Assembly (NCBI GenBank): GCA_049325335.1
Contig: JBMOMC010000045.1
Span: forward strand, 50,032 to 114,031
DNA from: Nitrospirota bacterium
GTDB taxonomy: Bacteria > Nitrospirota > Nitrospiria > 2-01-FULL-66-17
Length of the DNA stretch: 64,000 nucleotides
Reading direction: 5' to 3'
Of this stretch, positions 1-6,130 are shown one piece after another. The notes below the pieces were generated by a model. The model was not told where the DNA came from. It searched no databases and saw only the letters and a list, made by a program, of their open reading frames with translations. How positions within the stretch are numbered: position 1 is the first letter of the stretch; each line of letters begins with the position of its first letter. A program made the position numbers and the translations under genes.

Positions 1-259
1 GTCACAGAACCTACCGCGGTCTTGGCGTGACTGAAACAAAGCCAATTATGGAGCGAGATAAGAGGCGGGACGTGGTCACAGAACCTACCGCGGTCTTGGC
101 GTGACTGAAACACAGCAGCACGCCCATCCCCGTCAGAATCCCCATCGGTCACAGAACCTACCGCGGTCTTGGCGTGACTGAAACTGACTCCGCACGTCTC
201 GCCTGGATCGATGCCCTCCAAAGTCACAGAACCTACCGTAGTCGCGACGCAACTGAACC
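1..259 (-). CRISPR. CRISPR array end (probably continues left of the window): 37-bp repeats at 1-37, 75-111, 148-184 and a degenerate repeat at 223-259; spacers 37, 36 and 38 bp
   Basis: Three exact copies of GTCACAGAACCTACCGCGGTCTTGGCGTGACTGAAAC with unique spacers; the fourth copy has 8 mismatches. Minus-strand orientation (GTTTCAG... start) inferred from the anti-repeat and cas gene. Confidence 0.96.
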
Positions 260-286
260 GACAGCAGTGGCCACATACACACCAAT

Positions 287-455
287 AAAAACAGAGCATC
301 TGAGCTCGCCGGGCTCCCTTGATTCAGAAGTACGAAGCAGACCGAACTGCTCAATCCGGCCGTTCACCACAAGGGGTGTCGCGGTCTCCCATCGGTTCGC
401 CCTAGAACCGACGGTCGTACCGCCCGGCTCTTTTCAGCCGTAAGACCAAGACGTT
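287..455 (-). ncRNA. Putative tracrRNA
   Basis: Minus strand 452-431 reads GUCUUGG-UCUUAC-GGCUGAAAA, complementary to the repeat 5' end GUUUCAGUC-ACG-CCAAGAC (lower stem, bulge, upper stem). It is followed by hairpins (390-413, ~335-350) and a GAGC-UCAGAU-GCUC hairpin plus U-tract ending ~287. Ends are approximate. Confidence 0.8.
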
Positions 456-477
456 GGGCAAATGCCCAAACTATTCG

Positions 478-491
478 GTTGTCAAAGAACG
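478..491 (-). promoter_or_regulatory. boxA-like antitermination motif CGTTCTTTGACAAC upstream of tracrRNA/array
   Basis: Resembles the boxA consensus GYTCTTT(A/G)ANA; lies between the cas9 stop and the tracrRNA. It also contains a TTGACA hexamer. Confidence 0.4.
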
Positions 492-541
492 GGACTACTT
501 ACTTGAACGGAGTCGATTATCGAGAACTTCCCTTGTTGCTG

Positions 542-3500
542 TCAAACGGTACTCGTTACAGCCACCGTTGGCCCAACACGGACATCAGTGATTCGCTCAA
601 ACACGCCTGATGGCCAGTCGCCACTCCGGTGGTTGTGATAAAAATACGATGTCCCGTCATCGCGAATCAGCGTGCAGCCCGCACGCACCCAATGAATCTC
701 TCCACAGAGGGCGTGAGTTCGCATCCACTCAGAAATTGCGCGACGTTTCTTAAAGACTCTCGGCCGCAACGGTGTTTTATCGTGCGCCAAGGGCTGAATC
801 AATTCAGCCGGGAGCACGGGGACATCGCGATATGACTTTCGTTCAGGCTCCCGATCGAGCGACCAATCAGCGCGAATGCTCAAGACGATCGGCTTTTCTC
901 TTGCTACGCCGCCAGCAGGCGTCTTTCGATAACCCACGACTTTAAAGAGCACACCAGAGCTCGCCGCCCGATAGTGCGTGTGACTACCACGACGCAGCGG
1001 AGTGACTTCTCCCCGCCCTTCCTGTATGAGACGAACGGAGAAGTCTTTGGGAATATCGGTCGGTTTCGCATCAGCCTTTCCAAGAAACTCCTGAATGGCC
1101 TGCCACCGCGCCTGGATCGTCGGATGCACCACATGCGATGCGTTCGGCCCCGGCCTGTCATAACCGCGGGCCGTATTACGATACCATACGACCAGAGCGG
1201 TTCCCACCGCATCGCGCCCGCCACGCGCGAACGCCTCGCGGAGACATTGCTGAAGGCGCGGGTGACAGATCCGGCGAATTAAGTCGCCTCCATTCTCTGA
1301 GTCACTGCTGAGATGATCCCAAAAGTCTTGAACGGATTTCCGAATAGCCAGTACTGGACCGCCGCCATTTTCCCTCGGCCGATAGCTATACAGATTTTTG
1401 TCAAACGAGGACTTCTTCACCGTCGGAGGCGCCACTGCAGTCAGCGCAACTCCCGGGTGTTCCGTCGCTTTCTCCTTCGCGCCCCGGGATTTCCGTACGC
1501 GCCCTCCCACCACTCCCAGCGTTGTCTTGGCTTCGAGGCCAGCCAGGGGCTCGACGGCGCTCAAGGTAAACCGGCCATCCTGGCGAAAGTGCGGATCAAC
1601 GGCGTCCGCCGCGCCCTGAATCGCCACATAAGCGTCTCGGCCGAATCGTTCGGCGATGGCCAACTTCGGAAATCCTTCAGCGGCGGCGCCGAGGGCCAAC
1701 ACGTATGCGTCCAGCGCGTGATTATCGACTTTATCGCCCTGACGTTTCGCCACAGTCTTTTCGAAACCGTTGGCCACCGCGTCGCGGAGAATGGCGGTAT
1801 GGCGACCGGAAATACGCCGGACCTGCGTGGCGTCCTGCAGATTCAACCCGAATTCTTCAGCCAATAATCTTCGAAGATGCGCGGCATACCGAGAGACCGC
1901 CGTCGTCTGTACCATCCAACGTCCGGCCATGTCCAATAGTGAGTGCTCCGCGCGCTCAACGTCACCTTTGTTTTGCTTGACGTGCTCAGTCATTCGCTCT
2001 GCCGTAAGGTTCTGCAAAAGTCCCTTCTTGACCTCAATGATCGGGTGAATTGCGCCGTTTCGGCTCCTGGCGCGCTGTTTTCGTTCTTCGACTGAATGCC
2101 CAAAAGCCGCCAGCGCCTCGGGAGCAATCGACAACCGGCGACGGAACAACGAATGTTTCCCTTTTTCACGGTTGCATCGTGTGTGACAGGGAACGCGCGC
2201 TAAATACCCATCCATCGGAAACCGCGAGCCGGCAAACATGTGGTCCTCTTCGAGGTCCTTCTCGATACTCCGACCGCAATAGGCACACAGGCCGCCGAAT
2301 TCCTCGCGCAGCATCTTCTTCGTGTCACCGTCATAGTCAGCCTTGGGACCATACCAATACAGATCATAGGCCAAGCTCTCGTTCACCCGATCAGAGGAAC
2401 GCGCGCTCGCCGTTCCGTACGTGCGCGGCTTCTTCCTCAAAATCTTCACCGCGTCGAAACCGGTTGATTCAATCACCAGCCGATCAACCGTCTGCCCGTG
2501 AAGCAACGGTAATACCCTCCGTTTCAGGTACGCCAACATTTTGTCGCCGACAATGGAAACCCGCCGCGAGACATCCGCTGATTCGGCCTTCTCGGGCCAA
2601 CGTTCGCCGGCGCGAAAGCGCTGGATGAACTCCTCTTGATGAACGCGGCACCACCGCGATCGAGCAGCCCGGCCCGATGAATCCCGCTTTCTCGCCTCTT
2701 GAAATTCCCGCTCAACTGTTTCTCGGATGTTTTCCCGCTTGGCCTTTCCGAGCCATCGCTGTACGACCTTAAAATCGGATGTAGTGGAGTTTGCCGAGTT
2801 TGTTAGCCAATCAGCCAGAATCTGTTTCGCGCTCGCTCGGCGTCCACGCGACGAGGGAGGTTCTGGGTGCTCAGCCTTCACCGCATCAACGATCGCCTGG
2901 TCGAATTGACTTATCGCTTCGGAAGGCATGAGTGTGCTCTTCACGGCTTGTTCACACACGCTGGCGATCATCTCGCGGGAAATAATGGCACGGAACGGTT
3001 CCAGCTTGCCTTGAATGCCAAGGACAAGCGATCCGACGCCTTGGCGACCAACACGGTTCCGACAACCCTCCCACGCGCAAACACCAACGCCCCGCGCATT
3101 GATCCGCATCGGCCTCCGAGATCGCCTCCCCAATATCGAGCGCGCAATCAGGTGTGTCCGTTGGGCGCGGTCTGAGTCGGTGATAAACGATTCCAAGAAC
3201 GTCCTGAGCTGCTGCAGGAATTCGGCGTTCGGAAGCGAGGCACTCGAAGGCTGTTCATCCTCGGATTTGTTCTCGTCATCACCCCAGAAATGACCGCGGC
3301 GCTTGCAGTAGGCGAGCACCACGCGAGCCGTCTCTGCGTCGTCATGCAGAGGACCCGCGTGGCCCGTCAGCGCGTCCTGTAGACGCTTGAGGCGTCTTTT
3401 CCGTTCGTGATACGTCCTCCGTATCCGGCGCATCTGGGCACGCGGCTCGACCATCTCTTTGAGGGGTTTCTCTTCGAGATAGAGTGTGCCCACATACAGT

Positions 3501-3604
3501 GGGGTGGCGACGTTTTGGGTTGGATCAAACCGCACCAATGCCACGCCATGATGAATCTGGCCCGTGTCGATCGCCAAGAGATGGAACGGACGATTCGCGT
3601 TCAT
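542..3604 (-). CDS. cas9: Compact Cas9-family RNA-guided nuclease (type II-D / SMART-like), 1020 aa
   Basis: RuvC-I LLAIDTG, Arg-rich bridge helix RAQMRRIRRTYHERKRRL, RRSRR motif, Zn-ribbon CAWEGC...WCRVH, RuvC-II LVIES, HNH CAYC...EDH...CHTRCNREKG, RuvC-III NHALDA; adjacent array and anti-repeat. Confidence 0.9.
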   Translation of the reverse strand: MNANRPFHLLAIDTGQIHHGVALVRFDPTQNVATPLYVGTLYLEEKPLKEMVEPRAQMRRIRRTYHERKRRLKRLQDALTGHAGPLHDDAETARVVLAYCKRRGHFWGDDENKSEDEQPSSASLPNAEFLQQLRTFLESFITDSDRAQRTHLIARSILGRRSRRPMRINARGVGVCAWEGCRNRVGRQGVGSLVLGIQGKLEPFRAIISREMIASVCEQAVKSTLMPSEAISQFDQAIVDAVKAEHPEPPSSRGRRASAKQILADWLTNSANSTTSDFKVVQRWLGKAKRENIRETVEREFQEARKRDSSGRAARSRWCRVHQEEFIQRFRAGERWPEKAESADVSRRVSIVGDKMLAYLKRRVLPLLHGQTVDRLVIESTGFDAVKILRKKPRTYGTASARSSDRVNESLAYDLYWYGPKADYDGDTKKMLREEFGGLCAYCGRSIEKDLEEDHMFAGSRFPMDGYLARVPCHTRCNREKGKHSLFRRRLSIAPEALAAFGHSVEERKQRARSRNGAIHPIIEVKKGLLQNLTAERMTEHVKQNKGDVERAEHSLLDMAGRWMVQTTAVSRYAAHLRRLLAEEFGLNLQDATQVRRISGRHTAILRDAVANGFEKTVAKRQGDKVDNHALDAYVLALGAAAEGFPKLAIAERFGRDAYVAIQGAADAVDPHFRQDGRFTLSAVEPLAGLEAKTTLGVVGGRVRKSRGAKEKATEHPGVALTAVAPPTVKKSSFDKNLYSYRPRENGGGPVLAIRKSVQDFWDHLSSDSENGGDLIRRICHPRLQQCLREAFARGGRDAVGTALVVWYRNTARGYDRPGPNASHVVHPTIQARWQAIQEFLGKADAKPTDIPKDFSVRLIQEGRGEVTPLRRGSHTHYRAASSGVLFKVVGYRKTPAGGVAREKPIVLSIRADWSLDREPERKSYRDVPVLPAELIQPLAHDKTPLRPRVFKKRRAISEWMRTHALCGEIHWVRAGCTLIRDDGTSYFYHNHRSGDWPSGVFERITDVRVGPTVAVTSTV

Positions 3605-3625
3605 ACTCGTTTCACGGGTTGCGGC

Positions 3626-4216
3626 TCACGGCGTTGCCCGCACGCCATAGCGAGGCGTCTTCTCTCGGACACGAAACCCAATCCGCGGGCGGGGCGCTTC
3701 CGGCTCAGGCTCCCTGGGAGGGCTCAGCAGGGACATGATCTGCTGGATGACGTCGGAGATCACGCGCTCGTGAAGATCCAACCGTTCCGTCAACGTTTTC
3801 TCCACGACTGCCAGCTTCCCGGCCGAGTCCTTCTGGGCCGACAGCATGGCGCGCATTTTTACGAATGCGCGCACCACGAAGACGCTGGTCTGGATCGCGC
3901 GCTCGCTGCGCAGAATCGTGGCCGCCATGACCGCTCCGTGCTCCGTAAACGCCCAGGGCAGTTTTCGCACGCCGCCGTGGCCTGGACTTGATATCGCAAA
4001 TTGCGATATCAAGTCGGTCAGTTCTTGCCGTGTAAGCTGGAAAACGAAGTCGTGTGGAAAGCGCTTGCGGTTCCGTTTGACGGCTTCGTTGAGGCGGAGT
4101 GTCGCCACGCCATACAGCGCCGCAAGATCTCGATCGAGGATGACCTTGTGCCCCCGAACCGGGATGATGACGGAGTCAATGCCTTGCACCGCGTATCGTC
4201 CCGATTTCTGCGTCAT
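3626..4216 (-). CDS. ORF6N-domain DNA-binding protein (phage antirepressor-like)
   Basis: VRGHKVILDRDLAALYGVAT..LNEAVKRNRKRFP..F.FQLT and FTEHGAVMAATILRS signatures; C-terminal coiled coil and RIGF motif. Confidence 0.88.
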   Translation of the reverse strand: MTQKSGRYAVQGIDSVIIPVRGHKVILDRDLAALYGVATLRLNEAVKRNRKRFPHDFVFQLTRQELTDLISQFAISSPGHGGVRKLPWAFTEHGAVMAATILRSERAIQTSVFVVRAFVKMRAMLSAQKDSAGKLAVVEKTLTERLDLHERVISDVIQQIMSLLSPPREPEPEAPRPRIGFRVREKTPRYGVRATP

Positions 4217-4645
4217 GGTTCGTCCTCGATCACCGGTTCATGCCGATTCACACACGACACGCACGCACTCACCGAGTCATTCCAACAATTGCATCGAGAG
4301 AATGGCGGCCACCACGTCATCCGTGGCGAAGGAGTGGTCCACTCTAGCAGAAGCGGTCGGCGGGGAACAAGGTTGCCGCCGTTAGCTCATTCTCCGACTA
4401 CGCCGGGACCACCGCGGGTCACCGGCTCGGGTATACACCAAAATGGTCTTGGAGACCTCGGCCGCAAGGTGCAGGCGGGGCTGCCGGGCATGACGGACGA
4501 CTTGCCCTCCGGGGTTGACCACCAACAAGCGACGGCGAGTGGCCCACGCGTCCGCAACCTCTCTGGGATGCCGCGCCCGGAGCTTCGATGCCGCTGCAAT
4601 CGCTTGCTAATCCCCCTGTGCTTGTCCTATAGTGCCCCCGCTGCA

Positions 4646-6130
4646 ATGGATGATCTGAACGATCAAATCCGCTCGCGTCTCGCCAAGCTCGACACGCTCA
4701 ACGCCCTCGGCATCGCTCCGTTCGGCCGGCGATTCGTGCCCGATGACTCGGCCCAGGACGTGCACCGGCGGTTCGGCGCGCTGTCGCGGGAACGGTTGGA
4801 CGCGGACACGCCGTCCGCGGAAGTGGCGGGGCGAATCGTGGGGTTGCGGCGGTTCGGCAAGGCCGCGTTCGTCCACCTGCAGGACGCGAGCGGGCGAATC
4901 CAAACGTATTTGAAGCGCGACGCGCTGTCGGCCGCGGATTTTGCCGTGGTGGAACAATTGGACCTGGGCGACTACATCGGCGTGCGCGGGAGGGTGTTCC
5001 GCACTAAAACCGAGGAACTGACCGTGGAAGCGCGCGAGGTGGTGCACCTCGCCAAGGCGTTGCGCCCGCTCCCCGAGAAATGGCACGGACTCACCGACGT
5101 GGAGATCCGCTACCGGCAGCGTTATTTGGATTTGATCGCCAATCCGGAGGTCAAAAATACGTTCGTGCGTCGAAGCCGGATTATCCAAGGCATCCGGAAT
5201 TTCTTCAACGCCAAGGGTTTTCTCGAGGTCGAGACGCCCATGATGCAGGGCATGGCGGGCGGTGCGGCAGCGCGGCCGTTTGTCACGCACCATAACGCGC
5301 TGAGCACGGACCTGTACCTGCGCATCGCGCCGGAGTTGTATTTGAAGCGCCTGATCGTGGGCGGGTTCGAACGCGTCTACGAGATCAACCGCAATTTCCG
5401 CAACGAGGGAATCTCCACCATCCACAACCCCGAGTTCACGATGTTGGAGTTTTACCTCGCGTACGCGGACGTGACCGACTTGCTGCCGATGACCGAGGAC
5501 TTGATCACCACGTTGGCCAAAGACGTGTGTGGCACGTTGGAGCTGACCTATCAAGGCAAAACCATTGACCTGCGGCCGCCGTGGAAGCGCATCGGCATGC
5601 TGGACGCCGTTGCGGAACGACACCACGTGACTCGCGACACGGTCCGGGACCGCGACGCGGCCTCGCGCCTCGCGCGGTCGGTCGGGGTGCCGGTCAAACC
5701 CGACGACACGCTGGGTCAGATCCAGGCCGCGTTGTTCGAACATTCGGTCGAAGCCGATATCGTCAATCCCACGTTCATCACGGACTTTCCGACCGACATC
5801 TCCCCGCTCGCCAAACGGCGCGCGGACGACCACTCGCTCACCGAACGATTCGAGTTGTTGATCGCGGGCCGCGAAGTGGCCAATGGATTTTCCGAATTGA
5901 ACGATCCCATCGACCAGCGCCAGCGGTTTGAAGCGCAGGCCGCGCAACGGGCGCGCGGCGACGAAGAAGCGCACCGCGTGGACGAAGATTTTCTTCGGGC
6001 GCTGGAGCACGGCATGCCGCCCACCGCGGGTGAAGGCATCGGCATCGACCGACTGGTGATGCTGCTGACGGACCAGTCGTCGATCCGCGACGTCATTCTC
6101 TTCCCCCAGATGAAACCAGAAGCCCCGTAG
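4646..6130 (+). CDS. lysS: Lysyl-tRNA synthetase (class II)
   Basis: RYRQRYLDL, LYLRIAPELYLKRL, FRNEG, GMPPTAGEGIGIDRL; start placed at ATG 4646, not at the ORF-track start. Confidence 0.97.
   Translation: MDDLNDQIRSRLAKLDTLNALGIAPFGRRFVPDDSAQDVHRRFGALSRERLDADTPSAEVAGRIVGLRRFGKAAFVHLQDASGRIQTYLKRDALSAADFAVVEQLDLGDYIGVRGRVFRTKTEELTVEAREVVHLAKALRPLPEKWHGLTDVEIRYRQRYLDLIANPEVKNTFVRRSRIIQGIRNFFNAKGFLEVETPMMQGMAGGAAARPFVTHHNALSTDLYLRIAPELYLKRLIVGGFERVYEINRNFRNEGISTIHNPEFTMLEFYLAYADVTDLLPMTEDLITTLAKDVCGTLELTYQGKTIDLRPPWKRIGMLDAVAERHHVTRDTVRDRDAASRLARSVGVPVKPDDTLGQIQAALFEHSVEADIVNPTFITDFPTDISPLAKRRADDHSLTERFELLIAGREVANGFSELNDPIDQRQRFEAQAAQRARGDEEAHRVDEDFLRALEHGMPPTAGEGIGIDRLVMLLTDQSSIRDVILFPQMKPEAP

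Follow-up and report, generated by a model that had tools for sequence, protein, structure and literature searches.

The question raised by the locus described here is whether a divergent cas9 gene from a Nitrospirota bacterium belongs to type II-D, a group of Cas9s studied as the link from transposon IscB nucleases to Cas9 and as small genome editors, and whether it is part of a complete immune system. The gene lies in a stretch of 64,000 nucleotides (nt), hereafter the window, which corresponds to positions 50,032-114,031 of contig JBMOMC010000045.1 in assembly GCA_049325335.1 (Nitrospirota bacterium); the left flank of the window was retrieved as well. Our analyses indicate with good confidence that this is a complete type II-D CRISPR-Cas adaptive immune locus, and that its Cas9 is a member of a rare clade that is sister to the experimentally tested Cas9d-MG102 family.

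On the minus strand, the components of the locus follow one another in the order cas9, trans-activating CRISPR RNA (tracrRNA), CRISPR array, terminator, cas1, cas2, and cas4, with a gene for an ORF6N-domain protein as the neighbor preceding cas9. An earlier, sequence-based note on this DNA (the original prediction) had reported no cas1 or cas2 in view, which is correct for the window and incorrect for the locus: a cas1-cas2-cas4 module stands just left of the array and was missing from view because the window is cut inside the array. All three genes are on the minus strand, are intact, and score above their NCBIfam cut-offs, viz. cas1 (384 amino acids [aa]; Pfam E-value (E) 4.2e-68; TIGR00287, 245.6 bits), cas2 (106 aa; TIGR01573, 47.3 bits), and cas4 (TIGR00372, 125.9 bits), and in PADLOC the top profiles are Cas1_II (270 bits) for cas1 and Cas4_II (134 bits) for cas4. 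The cas1 match is the single one in a genome rated 99% complete, a weak promoter-like site is found before it, and the same genome encodes RNase III (257.7 bits, above the cut-off).

The right-hand end of the array occupies positions 1-259 of the window (minus strand) and consists of three 37-nt repeats (1-37, 75-111, and 148-184) and a first repeat (223-259) that is degenerate in its 5' half, separated by spacers of 37, 36, and 38 nt. The array extends a further ~1.2 kb to the left of the window, giving in total 19 readable repeats, 18 of them identical, and 17 readable spacers of 35-38 nt that are all different. A stretch of 100 bases that reads N inside the array (contig positions 49,932-50,031), directly left of window base 1, probably stands for one repeat and its flanking spacers. 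The minus-strand repeat reads GTTTCAGTCAC...GTGAC, and a minus-strand terminator, formed by a 19-bp hairpin and its T-tail, stands ~65 nt past the last repeat. Because of the likeness of this repeat to the repeat portion of the MG102-2 single guide RNA (sgRNA), and because of the minus-strand terminator past the array, the sense of the CRISPR RNA (crRNA) is assigned from the sequence to the minus strand.

The cas9 gene (542-3604, minus strand) is an uninterrupted open reading frame (ORF) whose translation of 1020 aa retains all of the RuvC and HNH catalytic residues. Its domain order is RuvC-I, an Arg-rich bridge helix, a recognition (REC) region with a zinc cluster, RuvC-II, HNH with a zinc finger, RuvC-III, and a C-terminal region. 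The catalytic residues of RuvC are D13 (RuvC-I), E379 (RuvC-II), and H629/D632 (RuvC-III), and those of HNH, H455 and N478, lie in the context D454-H455 ... N478. The bridge helix carries RRIRR at residues 59-63, and RRSRR is found at 160-164. There are three Cys/His clusters overall; the REC region contains C176-x4-C181 ... C319-x2-H322, and the HNH zinc finger reads C440-x2-C443 ... C473-x3-C477 (CX2C-X29-CX3C). In an alignment of 12 family members, D13, E379, H455, N478, H629, and D632 are invariant, and so are C176, C181, C319, H322, C440, C443, and C477. The protein is rich in arginine (11.7%), contains little methionine (1.4%), and has an isoelectric point of 9.95, and no PLMP string was found in its translation. 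The translation thus confirms every motif that the original prediction had listed (split RuvC, bridge helix, HNH, RRSRR, CX4C...CX2H, zinc-finger HNH, and the absence of PLMP). Zinc-ribbon motifs in REC and HNH, RRXRR motifs, high arginine, and low methionine are given as hallmarks of type II-D Cas9s in the account of Aliaga Goltsman et al. (2022; PMC9755519), and the present Cas9 shows all of them.

Judged by sequence, the nearest characterized enzyme is Cas9d-MG102-2. The Cas9d-MG102 family is assigned to type II-D in Supplementary Data 1 of the same work, where its full-length members measure 937-1076 aa, and MG102-2 (946 aa, 156-nt sgRNA) is described there as an active RNA-guided nuclease that makes a staggered cut in double-stranded DNA; its entry in Supplementary Data 3 gives a 3' nRC protospacer-adjacent motif (PAM). 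Staggered cutting is a property of MG34 enzymes as well. A bioRxiv preprint of 2026 describes further MG102-like enzymes of ~950 aa as active RNA-guided nucleases with an NRC PAM, encoded at loci without cas1/cas2, and reports new family members at ~50% identity. The II-D group itself is already characterized both biochemically and structurally. Our link to MG102-2 is provided by one of the related loci described below (L009), whose 946-aa protein begins with the same 150 residues as MG102-2, and whose intergenic region has the sequence of the tracr portion of the active MG102-2 sgRNA, both compared by eye. The window Cas9 is colinear with the L009 protein over residues 10-1014 (26% identity, E 1e-65), the C-terminal third included. 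Within the first 400 residues of the MG102 family sequences in the supplement, we find the same motifs as in the distant relatives of the window Cas9, and six motifs that are typical of the window clade have no occurrence in the same 400-residue portion of Supplementary Data 1 (PMC9755519).

Searches of protein collections indicate that close relatives of this Cas9 are few. A word-indexed search of 5.8 billion proteins returned 11 relatives, viz. one that is 90% identical, eight of 1005-1040 aa that are 42-47% identical (one of them an NCBI "hypothetical protein" from a metagenome-assembled genome [MAG] of candidate division NC10), and two that are 27-29% identical; outside its own 90% cluster, the window Cas9 is thus at most 47% identical to any relative found. 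A search with a profile among 1.84 billion representatives yielded 49 matches at E <= 1e-30 and 95 at E <= 1e-10. In species-representative genomes, 12 related loci (L005-L016) were found, two of them in Methylomirabilota/NC10 MAGs (Cas9 identity 42-44%) and ten, at 25-31% identity, in Pirellulales, Thermoguttaceae, Syntrophaceae, Desulfomonilaceae, Desulfarculaceae, and a "Proteobacteria" MAG. A CRISPR array adjoins cas9 in all 12, and tblastn detected no homologue of cas1, cas2, or cas4 within 8 kb in any of them. In the phylum of the source genome, relatives of the Cas9 (E <= 1e-10) are present in 3 of 401 sampled genomes, the source genome included, and in none of three genomes of the same genus; such patchiness is usual for CRISPR loci. 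Two features of the related loci may be recorded here. In one NC10 MAG (L006:7905-10977), cas9 lies in two frames, as a 762-aa ORF and its continuation, which represents either a pseudogene or an assembly error, and in three arrays adjacent repeat-spacer units are 97-100% identical, so that spacers are duplicated (L005:11331-11476, L016:11295-11421, and L013:11054-11195).

The position of the window Cas9 among these proteins was examined in a tree for which 55 proteins, aligned over 536 columns, were analyzed by a quick search under LG+G4; three IscB-positive proteins served as the root, and branch support was given solely by the Shimodaira-Hasegawa-like approximate likelihood ratio test (SH-aLRT). 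A clade of 10 that holds the window Cas9 has a support of 100, as does a superclade formed by this clade, 12 MG102-like proteins, and a third clade of nine; within the superclade, the MG102-like group is supported at 91 and the union of the clade of 10 with the third clade at 85. Together with the best-scoring NCBIfam model (Cas9d), the II-D fold matches presented below, and the 26% identity to MG102-2, this placement upholds the suggestion in the original prediction that the protein is a divergent member or a new branch of the II-D group. The third clade (P0035, P0036, P0038, P0039, P0042, P0044, P0048, P0049, and P0052; 944-998 aa; SH-aLRT 100) is nearly without NCBIfam signal, with Cas9d scores of at most 42 bits and one protein without any match. 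Three longer proteins (P0103, P0120, and P0128; 1311-1359 aa) make up a separate clade (SH-aLRT 100) and lie under the NCBIfam cut-offs for Cas9, Cas9d, and IscB.

In structural comparisons the best matches are type II-D Cas9s. An AlphaFold2 model of the window Cas9, built from a 33-sequence alignment, has a mean predicted local distance difference test score (pLDDT) of 79.4, and its top Foldseek matches in the Protein Data Bank are the II-D Cas9s 9k32 (E 7.7e-20) and 9lgi (E 2e-16), followed by SaCas9, St1Cas9, and Nme1Cas9. The best VIA-align match is likewise 9k32 (Z 16.6, root-mean-square deviation 11.1, 618 aligned residues, 21% identity, model residues 6-1008), with many other Cas9s within 2-3 Z units of it, and a sequence search of solved structures also places Cas9d structures first (E 3e-8). 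When residues 640-1020 are modeled alone (pLDDT 70.5), the sole Foldseek match at E <= 0.001 is again 9k32 (E 3.7e-4, template modeling score 0.19), and the next matches are the C-termini of other II-D and of II-C Cas9s. The C-terminal region, which the original prediction had considered unrecognizable, can thus be placed: by these fold matches and by the colinear alignment with the C-terminal third of MG102-2, it is assigned as the part that is wedge/PAM-interacting (WED/PI)-like in this lineage of Cas9s. Its divergence is too great for any inference on the PAM, and a PAM differing from the known ones is possible.

The remaining component is the guide RNA. Between cas9 and the array lies a predicted tracrRNA gene (284-509, minus strand), an element that is conserved in related loci and whose ends we infer. 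Twelve of the 13 loci, namely the window and all relatives but L007, have it adjoining the array, on the strand that gives the repeat as GTTTCA...; the contig of L007 begins within the array. The parts of the element follow a constant order, viz. a GYTCTTTGACAA motif, a variable segment of 13-33 nt, an anti-repeat with UGAAA at its end, an AAGAGC box, a long-range stem around variable hairpins, and GAGCC. The window has, all on the minus strand, the motif as GTTCTTTGACAA at 479-490, upstream of the anti-repeat GTCTTGGTCTTACGGCTGAAA at 432-452, the family-wide UGAAAAGAGC box at 436-427, and, as a candidate tracrRNA 3' end (284-307), a short hairpin at 307-294 (GAGC-UCAGAU-GCUC, also present in the centroid fold) followed by UGUUUUUAUU.

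The anti-repeat (452-432) can pair with nt 2-9 and 13-19 of the repeat across an internal loop. The free energy of this duplex is -20.0 kcal/mol, compared with -7.6 +/- 2.6 kcal/mol for 200 shuffled sequences, none of which is as low, and in the other 11 loci between 0 and 4 of 200 shuffles are as low as the cognate duplex. Across the 12 loci, 93 of the 96 cells of the proximal 8-bp stem are paired, and its position 7 is G-C in five loci and A-U in seven without a mismatch, a compensatory change. In L015, the repeat (AAGCUGA) and the anti-repeat (UCAGCU) have changed together relative to the AAACUGA/UCAGUU of its relatives, and the distal stems differ by clade, being CCAAGAC/GUCUUGG in the window and CCCC/GGGG in L005 and L006 (by eye). 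An initial duplex scan, in which the repeat was folded with sliding windows of 80 nt, told little, since in DNA this rich in GC many unrelated windows scored better. A tracrRNA beside the array with a repeat-complementary anti-repeat is a prediction from sequence that is backed by co-variation. The three tracrRNAs of the NC10 clade share a 38-pair consensus fold with two compensatory pairs, and for nine MG102-like tracrRNAs the common fold has 30 pairs, 14 of them compensatory; the covariance model derived from the latter nine matches the element of L005 (E 0.013) and a portion of that of L006 (E 0.14). No Rfam family matched positions 1-4300 of the window at E <= 1.

The predicted primary transcript would run from ~509 to ~284 on the minus strand, with an sgRNA core at 452-287. 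Its candidate promoter, the sigma-70-like TTGACA-18-GATAAT at 516-545 (minus strand, read 545-516), overlaps the cas9 stop codon, agrees with the consensus at 11 of 12 positions, and is the only promoter-like site within positions 1-4600 of the window; its assignment is by consensus match. Nuclease (542-3604), predicted tracrRNA (284-509), and repeats (1-259) are thus all contained in the window, as had been claimed at the outset, and the sgRNA proposed with that claim (19 nt of repeat joined to 452-287) fits both the conserved element and the published layout of the active MG102-2 sgRNA. A tracrRNA read from the degenerate repeat on the plus strand was also considered and dropped; the related loci and the published sgRNA place the element on the cas9 strand.

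Additional observations concern the upstream motif. It is located 13-33 nt before the anti-repeat in all 12 tracr-bearing loci (the window, L005, L006, and L008-L016), which represent several phyla; the other loci depart from the window form by small changes at most, and a perfect TTGACA is found within the motif in 10 of the 12. Its use as a -35 box was rejected, since no -10 element keeps a constant spacing to it and transcription begun 30-35 nt downstream would miss the anti-repeat. Pairing of the motif with AAAGAGC is unsupported: GYUCUUU is complementary to the box, but the variants do not co-vary. The active sgRNAs, in the form in which they are published, do not include the motif. In L005 (11032-11190) and L006 (11020-11186), the tracr element runs into the first repeat with no hairpin or U-tract in between, and tracrRNA and array may there be one transcript.

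A number of observations weigh against the assignment of this locus to a working type II-D system. The best NCBIfam model for the window Cas9, Cas9d (NF049971), reaches 64.5 bits against a cut-off of 375, and matches to Pfam RRXRR and HNH_4 are sub-threshold as well. In the tree, the MG102/NC10 superclade is not joined to the NCBIfam-defined Cas9d proteins: two proteins scoring 408 bits (above the Cas9d cut-off) and 290 bits (below it) group instead with IscB-like proteins of 600-690 aa (support 98). Forcing all Cas9d-labeled rows together costs 34 log-likelihood units, with a borderline approximately unbiased test probability of 0.04 for a group that was named after the tree had been seen; the 600-690 aa proteins left outside the forced group may be early II-D Cas9s. 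With filters off, the MG102-derived covariance model finds its best match in positions 1-5000 of the window at 456-294 (minus strand), which at 6.7 bits (E 0.31) is not significant alone, and the stem of the tracrRNA terminator is just 4 bp, the reason why the 307-294 hairpin was not listed by the terminator scan. No protospacer was found for the array, which therefore provides no PAM and no proof of recent immunity. Lastly, the degenerate first repeat stands by the tracrRNA, so that transcription of the array seems to enter from its apparent old end.

None of 22 scanned members of the superclade, MG102-like proteins included, reaches the Cas9d cut-off (best score 132.9 bits), and the model therefore does not cover this branch. 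This represents an annotation gap: the entire MG102/NC10 superclade escapes the NCBIfam Cas9d model, and P0003, a relative with a public record, carries no other name than "hypothetical protein". Since the tree does not recover the join to the Cas9d proteins, and the test of that join is borderline, II-D membership is taken to rest on the published assignment of MG102, the shared hallmarks, and the presence of cas1-cas2-cas4, and the low score of the MG102-derived model leads us to regard the inner part of the tracrRNA as diverged. Here and in most of the related loci, the 5' half of the tracrRNA-proximal repeat is degenerate, and having no upstream spacer this repeat does not need to pair with the tracrRNA. 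It resembles the old end of an array, which suggests that new spacers would enter at the cas1-proximal end and be transcribed last.

Beyond the II-D assignment, the clade of 10, perhaps with the third clade, could be a distinct deep lineage beside MG102 and outside Cas9d in its present model, with a tracrRNA core of its own and a PAM unlike the nRC of MG102 enzymes; we regard this extension as doubtful. If it is true, the locus would be among the few of the superclade that keep Cas1-Cas2-Cas4, and it would offer a natural model for spacer acquisition in type II-D.

It is unlikely that the locus is a decaying or silent relic, with genes intact by chance and neither acquisition nor interference. 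Such a relic would be consistent with the rarity of the relatives noted above, with the frameshifted cas9 of L006, and with the spacers, for which we found only chance-level matches (<= 20 nt for the 17 readable spacers) in their own genome, no match of the array in 50,697 phage records (single spacers were not run against IMG/VR or metagenome contigs), and one borderline 35-nt match (E 9.6e-4) in 400 other genomes of the phylum, none of which contains the array itself. Missing protospacer matches are, however, usual with environmental genomes, and a relic is poorly reconciled with a 1020-aa ORF that is uninterrupted and catalytically complete, with intact cas1, cas2, and cas4 genes, and with an array of 18 identical repeats whose readable spacers all differ.

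The gene preceding cas9 calls for a similar judgment. It encodes an ORF6N-domain protein of 196 aa (3626-4216, minus strand; Pfam ORF6N, E 2.1e-29), and the original prediction had counted it as part of the Cas9 locus. DNA binding is a property of ORF6N/KilA-N-type domains, and the gene is on the same strand as cas9 and 21 nt upstream of it, as might be expected of a functional accessory of Cas9, for instance a co-transcribed DNA-binding regulator. We consider this role improbable, for tblastn found no ORF6N homologue within 8 kb in any of the 12 related loci, so that the gene is not a conserved partner, and a scan of 10 ORFs preceding cas9 in L005 and L006 gave no ORF6N match. The protein instead matches three profiles of the PADLOC candidate single-gene defense family PDC-S05 (best PDLC04869, E 1.6e-47, residues 9-165), which fits an independent neighbor and, at the level of sequence similarity, suggests a small defense island beside the CRISPR locus. 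The gene is probably a separate defense-island or mobile neighbor, outside the system.

Two further readings have very little in their favor. Many CRISPR repeats end in GAAAC, as the plus-sense repeats do here (GTCACAGAAC...GAAAC), and this ending, an AT-rich segment of ~65 nt between the terminator hairpin and the cas1-proximal repeat, and the degenerate repeat at the far end could indicate the opposite polarity, i.e., plus-strand crRNAs with a leader on the cas1 side and an anti-repeat elsewhere. This arrangement is highly improbable in view of the active MG102-2 and MG102-14 sgRNAs, whose published sequences begin their repeat part with GUUUCAAUCAA, the cas9-sense form, of the tracr element and co-varying anti-repeat on the cas9 strand in 12 loci, and of the strong terminator beyond the array, which acts on the minus strand.

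In the classical scheme of subtypes, Cas4 marks type II-B. A II-B-like system, in which a Cas4-containing adaptation module accompanies a very divergent canonical Cas9, would accord with the cas4 gene and with the "type II" labels of the best PADLOC Cas1 and Cas4 profiles, yet we give it scant credence, as the Cas9 scores 41.5 bits with TIGR01865 (canonical Cas9 of types II-A/B/C) against a cut-off of 100, lies outside the separate clade (SH-aLRT 100) of the nine TIGR01865-positive Cas9s, and has its nearest sequence and structure matches in type II-D, for which cas1-cas2-cas4 is listed as a common adaptation module in the II-D portion of the 2025 classification of CRISPR-Cas systems (PMC12669027).

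Taking the locus to be a complete type II-D system, its operation may be pictured as follows. As in tested II-D systems, to which the analogy is drawn, Cas1, Cas2, and Cas4 would add spacers 35-38 bp long, and the array would be transcribed in the direction of cas9. The tracrRNA would be expressed from the promoter over the cas9 stop codon, with a primary start near 509, and would form with the opening ~19 nt of each repeat a duplex in which an internal loop separates an 8-bp from a 7-bp stem. The repeat:tracrRNA duplex is probably cleaved by the RNase III of the host, the 3' part of a minus-sense crRNA would read GUUUCAGUCAC..., and Cas9 with the crRNA:tracrRNA would be expected to cut PAM-flanked DNA by means of its HNH and RuvC sites.

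The locus adds to type II-D a branch that is 26% identical to the nearest tested enzyme, and since nuclease, guide RNAs, a 19-repeat array, and a Cas4-containing module are all in hand, its PAM, cut pattern, and spacer uptake are directly testable. The description of the locus as compact is apt in that the protein has the size of the small type II-C Cas9s, and fails in that it is larger than the Cas9d enzymes of 740-950 aa; its 1020 aa offer no size advantage over enzymes already in use.

In comparison with known systems, the closest likeness is to MG102. The window Cas9 shares with MG102-2 the catalytic residues, the Cys cluster of the REC region (NRG..C.W.GC ... C..H), and the HNH zinc finger (EFGGLCAYCG), and the locus shares with the MG102 family the arrangement of cas9, tracrRNA, and array on one strand and a tracrRNA frame composed of anti-repeat, UGAAAAGAGC, long-range stem, and GAGCC. 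It differs from MG102 proper in Cas9 identity, which is 26% and not the ~50% of new family members, in its separate clade in the tree, in the diverged inner part of its tracrRNA (6.7 bits on the MG102 model), and, unlike MG102-like loci, in possessing cas1-cas2-cas4. The structures of the small Cas9d enzymes (Cas9d-MG34-1: 8zq9, 9auf, and 8w2z; NbaCas9: 9k32; and 9lgi) are the best matches in both sequence and fold, but these comprise 733-762 residues compared with 1020 here, and identity over the structural alignments is 15-21%. With type II-C Cas9s (e.g., SaCas9, Nme1Cas9, and CjCas9), the protein has in common a length of ~1000 aa and a bilobed fold (Foldseek E 1e-11 to 1e-14, VIA Z 13-15), and it is set apart from them by a TIGR01865 score below the cut-off, by zinc clusters in REC and HNH, and by Cas4 in the adaptation module. 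Unlike IscB, it has no PLMP string and does not reach the cut-off of the IscB model NF040563 (29.4 bits against 175), and it is accompanied by an array and cas1-cas2-cas4. The features by which type II-D is described in the 2025 classification (PMC12669027), viz. a deep-branching Cas9, a tracrRNA, and cas1-cas2-cas4, are all present in this locus.

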